DNA from: an uncultured Pseudomonadota bacterium
GTDB taxonomy: Bacteria > Pseudomonadota > Alphaproteobacteria > Rs-D84
Assembly (NCBI GenBank): GCA_947307295.1
Contig: CAMZIQ010000001.1
Span: 104,968-168,967, forward strand
Reading direction: 5' to 3'
Length of the DNA: 64,000 nucleotides
The translations under genes and the position numbers were made by a program. Of the stretch, positions 1 to 5,603 are shown one piece after another. The notes below the pieces were generated by a model, which searched no databases, was not told the origin of the DNA, and saw only the letters and a program-made list of their open reading frames with translations. The first letter of the stretch is position 1, and every line of letters begins with the position of its first letter.

Positions 1-600
1 TTTTAAATCCTTAGAACAAGAATCATCCATTTGCTCTTTGCATAATTTGTCAGCAACTTTGTACAAAGCATCGCCTGTTTTCCCAGCAGCTTCATCGTCT
101 GACCAAACTTCTTCATCATCTTCATCGTCTTCATTATAGATAGAAGACCAAGACACTTTTTTATTATCTTCTTTTTTTGCCCCAACTTTTACAACAGAGC
201 CATCTTTATCATAAACCCTTTCTCCACCGTTAAAGATAATATCAGCATTTGCGCCAGCTTGAACTTTTTCTACTTCTTCTATTTTGATACGTTCAGCCTC
301 AGCCAATGTGTGCTTTATCGCTTCTAATTGCTCATCGTATTTTGCGGCATCATCACTACAGGTACACGAACCACCGTTTTCATTATCTGCGATACAAAAT
401 TGATCCATGCAACCATAATATTGTTCATAACATTGTTGATCATAAACATCTTTGGCTTCCATTTTTGTGCGAACTTTTGTTCCTGATTGCAAAGCAGATT
501 GTTTACCGGCGCTATTTTTTCTTGCTGCGAAAGAATCTGCGCTACAAACAAAAGCTGAAACAAAACCTAAAAACAAACCGATTTTCAACACTTTCGTCAT
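1..600 (-). CDS. Partial CDS (N-terminal 200 aa; gene continues beyond window start): secreted cysteine-rich protein, member of the large paralogous Cys-rich family
   Basis: Manual translation of the minus strand from an ATG at 598-600 gives MTKVLKIGLFLGFVSAFVCSA (signal peptide) ... QQCYEQYYGCMDQFCIADNENGGSCTCSDD, the same motif as ORFs 614-2806, 3291-5603 and 18882-21557. The ORF track omits it because no stop falls inside the window. Confidence 0.6.
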   Translation of the reverse strand, partial: MTKVLKIGLFLGFVSAFVCSADSFAARKNSAGKQSALQSGTKVRTKMEAKDVYDQQCYEQYYGCMDQFCIADNENGGSCTCSDDAAKYDEQLEAIKHTLAEAERIKIEEVEKVQAGANADIIFNGGERVYDKDGSVVKVGAKKEDNKKVSWSSIYNEDDEDDEEVWSDDEAAGKTGDALYKVADKLCKEQMDDSCSKDLK

Positions 601-613
601 GTTATATCTCCAA

Positions 614-3191: not shown

Positions 3192-3290
3192 GAAATCCAT
3201 TTATGATGGATTTTTTTATTACACTTTTGTGTATAAAACCCCTTGCTTAAAATATCTAAATTTTGTTATCATTACTATAACAGTATAGGA

Positions 3291-5603
3291 ATGAGAAGGA
3301 TTTGTCTGATTTTAATCGGCTTGCTTTTGTGTGTTGACAGCGTCAACGCTGCCGAACGTGGGCATAGTACAACTTTGCGGCAGCAAGTAAAAAACCCAAC
3401 CGTTTCAACAATTCGTTCAACACAAAAAAGGACTGTATCTTCACGTTCGGCAACAAAAAACAATTTAAAAACACAAACAAAAACTCGCACAGCAACGAAT
3501 AAAACCGTAACAGCAAGATCTGCCACGCAAAGAACATCTGTTATACGCCCTATTTTGCAACAACCAACCCGAACAGCACGCGCGGCAACAACTGTAAAAA
3601 CACGTACTTTTGGCAATAATTATAACTCTTGTCGTGATGCGTATTTCACATGTATGGATCAATTTTGCGCCACTCAAAACGAAAATTATCGTCGTTGTGT
3701 TTGTTCATCAAAATTAAAAACTATCCAAGAACAAGAAAAAAAATTATCTCAAACATCTGACAGCTTAAAAGATTTTGAATCTTTGAACATAGATATGATT
3801 TCAAAAACTTCCGCCGAAGTAAAAGCGATGGTATCTGCATCAGATGGCGAATCTGCGATAAAAAAAGACAAATCAGAAAGCGCGAACACACTAAAAAGTG
3901 TTGGTGCTGTTCTTGACAATTCAAAACAACAATCTTTGTCTACTGCTGGAAAGCTGGATATTGCCGGCGACATCAAAGCAATTTGGTCAACGACTGACTT
4001 AATTGGTGGTTCAGATATTGCAAATTTAACTGGCGAAGCATTATTCAATGCTGTTCACGCCCAATGTAATGAATTGGTCAAAGATTCCTGTGCTGCATCA
4101 GATTTAAAAATGGTGTCTTCTGCATATGGCATGTACATCGAAAACGATTGCGCAGTATTACAAAATAATCTTGATAACAAAACAGCTGCTGCGAATGCAT
4201 CAATACGAACAACCCGTCACAAAATGCAGGATGCAAGACTTGAAAATTATAATGCTCATAATTCGCTAAGAATTAACGATTGTATCGCAAAAATTCGTAC
4301 TGATATCACGGCAGATACCGCCTGTGGCGAAGGTTATATACATTGTCTAGATTTTTCTGGAAAATATCTAAATATCACAACAGGTGAACCGATTTATTCT
4401 CCTGAATTTTACCAAATTGAAAATCAAATATCTTTATCTGGCGATATATTAACAAACAGCCAAAACGCTTCTTTCGTCACCATGTTAAATAAAAAGCGTT
4501 CATTTGCTCAAAAAGATTTGGATTTGTGCCAAGACGTTTCAGATAATGTCTGGAATGAATTTTTAAGACAGGCATTGGTGGAAATATACCAAGGCCAACA
4601 AAAACGGGTAGAAACAGTTAAAAACGAATGTCTTCAGGTTGTAAACGAATGTTATTTAAAACAATCTGAATCTTTGAAACAGTTTGTCGACAATTCATCA
4701 CCGATAACATTCGTTCAAACACTTGAATTATCAGAAGAAATGTGCACGGATAAACTAAACACGTGCAGCAACTTGTACGGTGGTGGTCCAGACGGATTGG
4801 AAATATTGGTTGCAACAATGACCGGTATAACAGATTTAACTATTGAACAATCTTGTCCTGATTTGTTGGCTACATTTGCAAAGTCAATATGCGCAGTTCC
4901 AGAAAGTGATACTTTACATTCATACCCATACGGTTGTCGTAAATACGCGCCGGGCGAATCTTACTATGCCCGCGAAGCATTATGCAACACTACATTGGTA
5001 AACCCATTTTCACGTTCTGACATTTTAACAACCCAAACTATCAGCCAAGCTTACGTAGATTACCTTGGTGTATGTCAAGATTACACAAAAATATACACCA
5101 GTTGCAAAGTTGGATATTATCTGTATTACAACAATGGTGATGACTGTACTAGTGCTAATAATAATTACTGCTTTGCGCCAAATACAGCTCATGAATGTCA
5201 TACTTGTCCAAATCAATGTATTTGTCCCGGCGGAACACAGCCACCGGTTGGCATTGACGATAACCTGTATACTACGTGCGGACAATATTACATCGGCAGT
5301 TTATATCAACAATTAGTTATATACGCTTTGCAGAATTGTACACGAACATCTGATACATCAAACGTTTTATCCGAATCGTTATTGGCAGAAATTGATAAGA
5401 TTTCAAAAAACATCAGAACATCTTTGATTTCAATACTTGCCCAAGAATGTTCTGATTTAAACGGAATTTGGGTTAATTCAGTATGGCAAGACGAAAACAA
5501 CAATGGGTATCACGATGTCACCGGTGATGTGTTATTCAATGACTTTTATGTTGCCACCGGCGCTAACAAATTATGGGGATATTGTAAAGACCCTAATCAA
5601 TAA
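3291..5603 (+). CDS. Large secreted cysteine-rich protein, paralogous family member (ORF track start 3243; signal peptide begins at the Met at 3291)
   Basis: MRRICLILIGLLLCVDSVNA signal peptide. Then a long T/R/A/K-rich low-complexity linker, then SCRDAYFTCMDQFCATQNENYRRCVCSSK, matching the family motif, and many Cys pairs through the C-terminus. Confidence 0.7.
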   Translation: MRRICLILIGLLLCVDSVNAAERGHSTTLRQQVKNPTVSTIRSTQKRTVSSRSATKNNLKTQTKTRTATNKTVTARSATQRTSVIRPILQQPTRTARAATTVKTRTFGNNYNSCRDAYFTCMDQFCATQNENYRRCVCSSKLKTIQEQEKKLSQTSDSLKDFESLNIDMISKTSAEVKAMVSASDGESAIKKDKSESANTLKSVGAVLDNSKQQSLSTAGKLDIAGDIKAIWSTTDLIGGSDIANLTGEALFNAVHAQCNELVKDSCAASDLKMVSSAYGMYIENDCAVLQNNLDNKTAAANASIRTTRHKMQDARLENYNAHNSLRINDCIAKIRTDITADTACGEGYIHCLDFSGKYLNITTGEPIYSPEFYQIENQISLSGDILTNSQNASFVTMLNKKRSFAQKDLDLCQDVSDNVWNEFLRQALVEIYQGQQKRVETVKNECLQVVNECYLKQSESLKQFVDNSSPITFVQTLELSEEMCTDKLNTCSNLYGGGPDGLEILVATMTGITDLTIEQSCPDLLATFAKSICAVPESDTLHSYPYGCRKYAPGESYYAREALCNTTLVNPFSRSDILTTQTISQAYVDYLGVCQDYTKIYTSCKVGYYLYYNNGDDCTSANNNYCFAPNTAHECHTCPNQCICPGGTQPPVGIDDNLYTTCGQYYIGSLYQQLVIYALQNCTRTSDTSNVLSESLLAEIDKISKNIRTSLISILAQECSDLNGIWVNSVWQDENNNGYHDVTGDVLFNDFYVATGANKLWGYCKDPNQ

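Follow-up and report, generated by a model that had tools for sequence, protein, structure and literature searches.

A lineage-restricted family of exported, cysteine-rich proteins in tiny-genome gut Alphaproteobacteria of Rs-D84, with a possible role in cell-cell interaction

A 64,000-nucleotide stretch of DNA from an uncultured gut or rumen alphaproteobacterium of the Rs-D84 lineage (assembly GCA_947307295.1, contig CAMZIQ010000001.1, positions 104,968 to 168,967 of the forward strand; hereafter the window) carries four genes, A to D, that encode related, exported, cysteine-rich proteins. The family is undescribed and lineage-restricted, and all members known so far come from gut Alphaproteobacteria with tiny genomes (Candidatus Enterousia and kin), a conclusion that is well supported. 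We propose that its members are disulfide-stapled envelope or surface proteins of Rs-D84 / Candidatus Enterousia that would be used for cell-cell interaction, a proposal that we think has an even chance of being right. The four genes make up about 1% of such a genome, and their retention is universal; their products are exported, evolve fast and resemble nothing that has been characterised.

A previous reading of the window from its sequence alone had described four open reading frames (ORFs) as a tandem array of giant secreted paralogs with one architecture. All four ORFs were confirmed, and so were the kinship and the shared architecture; at 730-891 amino acids (aa), the proteins are large rather than giant. 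In pairwise BLASTP with composition adjustment, E-values were 4e-43 for B-D (over about 490 aa), 5e-25 for A-D, 5e-21 for D-C and 5e-11 for B-C. By these values the similarity among A, B, C and D is homology and not a low-complexity coincidence, and the four ORFs are true paralogs. The pattern C-x6-C-M-D-x-F-C-x9-C-x-C occurred exactly four times in a six-frame translation of the window, once in each ORF. The stricter motif of the sequence-only reading, C-[RQ]-D-A-[YF]...R-C-x-C, is matched by B, C and D; the exception is A, with CYEQYYGCMDQFC...SCTC.

The full length of A was obtained from a near-identical metagenome contig (L005), whose 843-aa ortholog (L005:8414-10945) is identical to the window's A over its first 200 aa. 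Gene A starts 13 bp past the stop codon of B and has a GGAG ribosome-binding site. The infA gene (2937-3191) sits between B and C; C is co-directional with infA and, as had been described, divergent from B. A hairpin with a T-run (3193-3218) follows infA, and C then has its own upstream/promoter region. The tandem arrangement thus holds for A-B in the window, and real tandem expansions occur at the D locus of other genomes. The idea that the family dominates the non-core coding capacity was not borne out: the four genes occupy about 12% of the window, and two unrelated Cys-rich exported proteins (15572-17719 and 24364-25488) are further non-core coding sequence.

All four proteins have the same layout, namely a signal peptide, a disordered linker, the Cys motif and a helical body of about 500 residues. 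Read directly from the sequences, the four signal peptides follow the Sec/signal peptidase I pattern, with a positive n-region, a hydrophobic region and a small-x-small site: MTKVLKIGLFLGFVSAFVCSADSFA/A in A, MKIINILSVLLLLPGVAFG/A in B (ending ..GVAFG/AARG, with no lipobox Cys), MRRICLILIGLLLCVDSVNA/A in C (ending ..DSVNA/AERG) and MRIRMFLAVALSLCMADFGAFA/A in D (ending ..FGAFA/ANVRG). Because of these N-terminal signals, Sec-type export of the four proteins appears well supported. The sequence-only reading had called the family secreted effectors or adhesins; on the strength of the signal peptides the first word stands, the choice of effector or adhesin stays hypothetical, and "effector" was an overstatement, as no such domain was found.

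The linkers differ among the paralogs. That of A is short (about 30 aa) and basic (net +4), that of B (aa 21-101) is basic (+4) and then strongly acidic (-11), that of C (aa 21-113) is T/R-rich and very basic (net +18, pI 12), and that of D (aa 23-133; 21159-21491) is basic and A/T/G/Q-rich (net +10) with three ARAG-x2-Q-K/T-V repeats. The long T/A/R/K/Q-rich linker previously ascribed to every member therefore does not apply to A, in which it is short, or to B, in which it is not uniform. The folded bodies are acidic in all four, opposite in charge to the net-positive disordered tails. In B the helical Cys-rich body spans aa 102-620; in D an acidic disordered loop (aa 205-249) is followed by a helical core (aa 250-620) and a C-terminal alpha/beta head (aa 621-891). 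The C-terminal region of C is of its own Cys-rich type, distinct from the other paralogs, and A has a hydrophobic insert at its C-terminus. The last strand of B ends in C-E-D-I-N-M, a tail common to A (as C-E-D-I-x-M) and many D-type proteins. Among the four paralogs, only B has a glycine-zipper segment, which is 81% conserved across orthologs and is a candidate membrane-inserting anchor. Its matches to Bacteriocin_IIc (19.5 bits, cut-off 27.1) and to the YiaD glycine zipper NF053611 (10 bits, cut-off 175) were sub-threshold and B has no lipobox, so that B does not qualify as a glycine-zipper outer-membrane lipoprotein.

AlphaFold models of B and D, built on deep alignments, agree with each other: both contain a disordered linker and acidic loop, a long-helix body of about 500 residues and a small C-terminal beta module. 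The mean predicted local distance difference test (pLDDT) score was 72.6 for D, with the structured part mostly at 80-95, and 68.7 for B, in which the glycine-zipper insert (aa 662-716) had low confidence.

Cys makes up 4.2-4.9% of the family proteins versus 0.98% of ten core proteins of the window. The numbers of Cys in the mature proteins are all even (36, 36, 32 and 36), and both B and D keep 29 core Cys columns with 100% conservation. Exactly six of the core columns (D numbering 348, 411, 466, 480, 537 and 569), an even set, have been lost in the C lineage. Many Cys lie on helices with i/i+7 spacing, the dominant spacing in the family. The family thus shows conserved Cys, even in number and lost in even sets, as disulfide-bonded Cys would be. 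Given the even counts, the invariant columns, the loss as an even set and the i/i+7 spacing, the Cys are most likely joined in intramolecular disulfide staples.

An exhaustive HMMER search with the family profile returned 1,038 representatives at 50% identity, of which 577 had E <=1e-30, and there are at least 553 family loci in species-representative genomes. All confirmed loci were in uncultured gut, rumen or termite-gut Alphaproteobacteria, including a closed metagenome-assembled genome (MAG) of 958,618 bp; the named matches were "Alphaproteobacteria bacterium" MAGs from rumen or gut and Candidatus Enterousia species. The family had been thought lineage-specific, and every match agreed with this. 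Full-length orthologs number in the hundreds for every paralog, and not one of them has an informative name or a Pfam domain. A look-up of the exact D sequence gave no record, and the family is undescribed in the literature that we searched on Enterousia, Rs-D84 and cysteine-rich surface proteins of reduced Alphaproteobacteria. A curated family model is warranted, since over 1,000 sequence clusters carry only the label "hypothetical protein".

In line with the first impression that no known domain was present, the database searches assigned the proteins to no characterised family. Pfam, NCBIfam and PADLOC searches on all members, the long outliers and the tandem D copies yielded neither a match above threshold nor a fused domain, and no secretion-system, adhesin or toxin domain was detected in the family proteins. 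The family profile and a profile of D orthologs gave no PDB sequence-profile match with E <0.9. A Pfam match to DUF2664 (PF10867; 17.4 bits against a cut-off of 22 bits, E 0.006) overlapped the Cys motif of C in one of 53 members and was treated as chance.

Across the lineage, each of the four genes forms a single conserved syntenic ortholog group that sits amid housekeeping genes and is not part of an accessory island. Two gene orders were near-invariant among 78 fetched loci: C-infA-B-A, and rpoA-rplQ-D followed by a 318-aa membrane protein on the opposite strand and a 715-aa Cys-rich protein. Orthologs of B, C and D were repeatedly found on the same long contigs. We also considered that the genes might be cargo of mobile elements. 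This was rejected, as tblastn found no family homologs in 50,697 phage records or 72,556 plasmid records and the chromosomal position was fixed over the 78 loci.

The family evolves faster than the housekeeping genes of the same genome pair. Relative to the genome of contig L001, D, C and B were 52%, 69% and 73% identical, respectively, versus 86-96% for housekeeping proteins (RpoA 96, SecY 95, NrdR 94, CcrM 92, RplQ 89, SLT 88 and RnhB 86%; 83-96% with L003 and L004 included). The syntenic neighbours of D were 53-55% (715-aa protein) and 62-65% (318-aa protein) identical. Against the near-identical L005 strain (synonymous divergence, dS, about 0.02-0.06), all 22 aa differences in B fell in the disordered linker (aa 39-83) and the acidic loop (aa 192 and 197), which indicates that the folded body is under purifying selection while the linkers are free to vary. 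The ratio of nonsynonymous to synonymous divergence (dN/dS) in this comparison was 0.28 for B and 0.07 for C, with clpX and pgk at 0.19-0.20.

The paralogs also differ in where they vary. Orthologs of B were 82-86% identical throughout, zipper included and linker excepted, and those of C 59-80% depending on the region. In D orthologs, the motif and core were 63-74% identical and the head 19-35%, in spite of the head being confidently folded (pLDDT mostly 80-95). A narrower pair of figures, 27-35% for the head and 63-71% for the core, was also obtained. At least 17 fetched loci, the closed MAG among them, have two or three full-length D-type genes (or more) of about 790-1160 aa arrayed in tandem at the D locus (after rplQ in L012, L013, L014, L016, L021, L024, L030, L033, L037, L046 and others), in one case with a further copy on the opposite strand. 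The tandem copies differ most in the head (23-44% identity vs 42-78% in the core), and D-type sequences dominate the diversity of the family at 50% clustering. Hypervariability and copy-number variation of this kind, expected of an exposed recognition protein, were observed in the D subfamily only.

The reported biology of the lineage gives these observations a setting. Rs-D84 genomes are about 0.75-1.0 Mb and encode no tricarboxylic acid cycle, no respiration, no amino-acid, nucleotide or fatty-acid biosynthesis and no standard transporters, and the lifestyle has been inferred to be that of an obligate symbiont or parasite with unexplained membrane proteins that may mediate contact with other cells (PMC12306168). 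Rs-D84 / Candidatus Enterousia live in the guts of ruminants, horses, chickens, termites and humans. One genome matching the family, isolate 82_22-119 (JBKSMS), is listed as Enterousia, order Rs-D84 (PMC12306168). The window itself has housekeeping genes (infA, clpXP, pgk, the ribosomal-protein cluster, rpoA, secY, tuf, fusA and lepA) and Gram-negative envelope genes (SLT, YceG/MltG, an LpoB-like protein, a CsgG-like protein and an OmpA-like barrel).

On these grounds we infer disulfide formation, a location beyond the outer membrane, co-assembly of the paralogs and a function in interaction. In our model, a polycationic disordered tail would be followed by an acidic helical body which, stapled by disulfides, would form a rigid, protease-resistant rod ending in a paralog-specific C-terminal module. 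An ancient split would have given four single-copy ortholog groups with different roles. From its uniform conservation and C-terminal glycine zipper, B is the likely membrane-anchored base; from its conserved stalk, its hypervariable head and its tandem duplication in many genomes, D is the likely exposed recognition or attachment subunit. The family would then serve contact with a partner cell or host surface; contact or recognition is the most economical function for an organism obliged to live off other cells. Among the closest known systems are the helical-bundle surface antigens of eukaryotic parasites (trypanosome receptors, invariant surface proteins and the helical modules of Plasmodium TRAg, RH5 and PfEMP1). 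The putative B anchor resembles the membrane-inserting hairpin of SlyB, the Rickettsia 17-kDa antigen and YiaD in its zipper of about 45 residues rich in G-x3-G; unlike in the SlyB/YiaD type, it lies at the C-terminus of a large Cys-rich protein. The D subfamily bears the classic marks of an exposed recognition molecule and offers concrete imaging, ligand and structural targets.

Several points weigh against this model. No route for the family proteins across the outer membrane was recognised: there was no autotransporter barrel, lipobox or type I, II or IX secretion signal and no neighbouring secretion gene. The predicted template modelling scores (pTM) of the two models were 0.43-0.47, so that the relative placement of the domains is uncertain. 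In a genome this small, conserved synteny says little about function. B and C are fairly conserved, with low dN/dS (0.07-0.28), which suits a structural as well as an interaction role. The lineage is described as a strictly fermentative gut anaerobe without respiratory chains (PMC12306168), a lifestyle that leaves the route to forming and keeping periplasmic disulfides unexplained, and no Dsb-like CxxC protein was detected in the window or in 83 fetched loci, which cover only a few neighbourhoods. How about 18 disulfides per protein would be made and maintained in a non-respiring anaerobe is a biochemical puzzle.

The strongest competitor to an interaction role, in our judgement somewhat improbable, is a periplasmic or outer-membrane-associated scaffold, cross-linked by disulfides, that stiffens the envelope in the manner of chlamydial-type OmcB/OmcA without recognising other cells. 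It would account for the high Cys content at invariant positions, for the strong and uniform conservation of B with its putative glycine-zipper anchor, for the status of the genes as single-copy syntenic core genes, for purifying selection on the folded body and for the lack of a recognisable outer-membrane translocation signal. OmcB and OmcA are, like the family, Sec-exported proteins with about 4-5% Cys from an obligately host-dependent Gram-negative bacterium. The basic N-terminal segment of OmcB, which is implicated in binding anionic host glycans, resembles the polycationic tails of the family. This likeness comes without a sequence match: Chlam_OMP6 and Chlam_OMP3 gave nothing at E <=1 in the four proteins or at E <=0.01 in the 53 members, and the family is predicted to form long-helix bundles whereas OmcB is beta-rich. 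Nor is a substitute wall obviously needed, as the window encodes SLT, YceG/MltG and an LpoB-like protein and the lineage, which keeps ordinary peptidoglycan genes, is reported to have RodA, MreB and MrdA. A scaffold would moreover leave the hypervariable head of D, its tandem duplications and the faster-than-housekeeping evolution unexplained.

Alternatively, the proteins could be soluble effectors or toxins, released into the medium or a partner cell to damage, permeabilise or scavenge nutrients. We regard this as doubtful. Signal peptides are present, disulfide-stabilised helical bodies would survive in a protease-rich gut, D evolves rapidly and the organism relies on the metabolites of other cells; however, no toxin, enzyme or pore-forming domain was detected, and Foldseek comparisons with the MakA and MakE cytotoxins gave probabilities of only 0.03-0.04. 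The anchor-like zipper of B and the hydrophobic C-terminal insert of A do not suit released proteins, four ancient, stable, single-copy paralogs amid housekeeping genes are unlike a typical effector repertoire, and phage or plasmid homologs were not found. Among known secreted proteins, the Helicobacter Hcp family is similar in being helical, with paired Cys that staple helices and lineage-specific paralogs, in a gut-associated bacterium. Hcp proteins have a regular 36-residue repeat, whereas the present family has a single body of about 500 residues with its own Cys spacing and is much larger (730-891 aa); the Cys spacing is not periodic at about 36 residues, and the Sel1/SLR models of Pfam matched neither the four proteins nor the 53 members.

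A third alternative denies the disulfides: the Cys would serve as metal ligands or, in the envelope of this anaerobe, as a redox buffer or sink made of thiols. Stable disulfides are indeed questionable given the reducing habitat and the reported lack of respiration, and a Cys content of 4-5% would suit such a role. Metal sites typically have CxxC/CxxH knuckles, from which the dominant i/i+7 helix spacing differs. The Cys are even in number, their columns are lost as an even set, and no metal-binding domain was detected; we consider this explanation very unlikely. Finally, a chance match between low-complexity Cys-rich sequences, which the sequence-only reading had named as a possible flaw and which has nothing but the low-complexity linkers in its favour, is refuted by composition-adjusted E-values down to 4e-43 over about 490 residues and by the hundreds of full-length orthologs per paralog, is further countered by the invariant Cys columns and the confident structure predictions, and has a negligible likelihood.

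A bolder form of the interaction model, which we find unlikely but worth stating, is that the four paralogs form one heteromeric disulfide-stapled surface apparatus of unseen fold, in which B (perhaps with A) would be the anchor and the head of D would set partner specificity. If true, this would be an attachment or nutrient-acquisition organelle of Rs-D84 / Enterousia, widespread uncultured obligate gut symbionts, and would mean that a non-respiring anaerobe has some as yet unknown way of arriving at stable disulfides.

Table 1. Family genes, their segments and associated features in the window.
Feature	Position	Strand	Remarks
Paralog A	1..600	-	N-terminal 200 codons of an 843-aa protein, cut at the window edge
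Paralog B	614..2806	-	730 aa; most conserved member
Paralog C	3291..5603	+	770 aa; ATG at 3291; orthologs likewise 770 aa
Paralog D	18882..21557	-	891 aa
Family motif of A	358-432	-	CYEQYYGCMDQFC-x9-C-x-C, then acidic loop
Family motif of B	2429-2503	-	
Family motif of C	3630-3704	+	
Family motif of D	21084-21158	-	
B C-terminal glycine-zipper segment (aa 662-716)	659..823	-	AAGGLSAGAAAGTMINAGWGTAIGGAVGAVGAGVLGAMSGG; between strands of the beta module
D C-terminal head (aa 621-891)	18885..19697	-	folded but hypervariable
Sigma-70-like promoter candidate upstream of the B-A pair	2904..2933	-	TTAACA-18-TATAAT, 11/12 matches
Multi-pass membrane protein, 318 aa	17869..18825	+	no Pfam match, no Cys; not a family member
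Exported Cys-rich protein, 715 aa	15572..17719	-	26 Cys, two internal glycine-zipper stretches, no Pfam match
Exported protein, 374 aa	24364-25488	-	32 Cys (8.6%), Ephrin_rec_like repeats PF07699, E 2.6e-14

The promoter candidate ahead of the B-A pair (Table 1) is a consensus match only, and such sites were no commoner in the region than expected from shuffled sequence. The spacer between rplQ and D (21558-22437) is 880 bp long in the window versus about 120 bp in L001 and L003, and Rfam found no match in it. Directly after rplQ comes a terminator-like hairpin. The spacer further contains two direct copies of an element of about 39 nt (near 22245 and near 22155) and 11.5 copies of a (TG/CA) dinucleotide at 21771-21793, a run overlapping a possible small ORF. 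Another hairpin, with a T-run, precedes D's own AAGGAG ribosome-binding site.

The 318-aa protein, a conserved divergent neighbour of D across the lineage, has transmembrane helices in its N-terminal part, joined by an acidic, proline-rich linker to a globular part at the C-terminus. The 715-aa protein, also conserved in the D block, contains a G/N/P-rich low-complexity stretch and an "RMPT" element in common with the B linker. It was tried as a fifth family member and rejected (hhalign probability of 1.3% against the family profile). The 374-aa protein is inserted between rpsK and rpoA within the ribosomal-protein cluster; at the same site, L001 (5634-8006) has a 790-aa version with 95 Cys and other genomes have short unrelated ORFs. 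It resembles a repeat protein of variable length, a type with which eukaryotes are more usually associated.

Elsewhere in the window, about 2.3 kb (7582-9763, minus strand) are found between clpP and pgk that are extra relative to L005, where clpP directly precedes pgk. This segment holds two GNAT acetyltransferase genes and a 329-aa gene without a Pfam match, whose product has a paralog at 49123-50169 (minus strand; 39% identity, E 8e-68). The segment of lowest G+C content in the window (45283-49081; 0.30-0.31) contains genes for a radical-SAM protein, a 394-aa Cys-containing protein without a Pfam match and, in convergent orientation, an ATP-binding cassette (ABC) exporter with fused transmembrane and ATPase domains; it is possibly a peptide-maturation and export cluster. 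The region 54486-57639 has two tRNA-Pro genes (anticodons GGG and CGG) and, close to them, a 332-aa ORF. This ORF matches only the Arm-DNA-binding and central domains of a phage-type integrase, with no match to the catalytic domain, and is possibly a decayed integrase at a former integration site. Lastly, a run of lipoprotein-like genes, each encoding a signal peptide and then a Cys, lies on the plus strand at 50330-54134; the last genes of the run encode an LpoB-like protein (PF13036, E 9.5e-33) and a CsgG-like one (PF03783, E 5.7e-9), and the run may be an outer-membrane secretion channel cluster.

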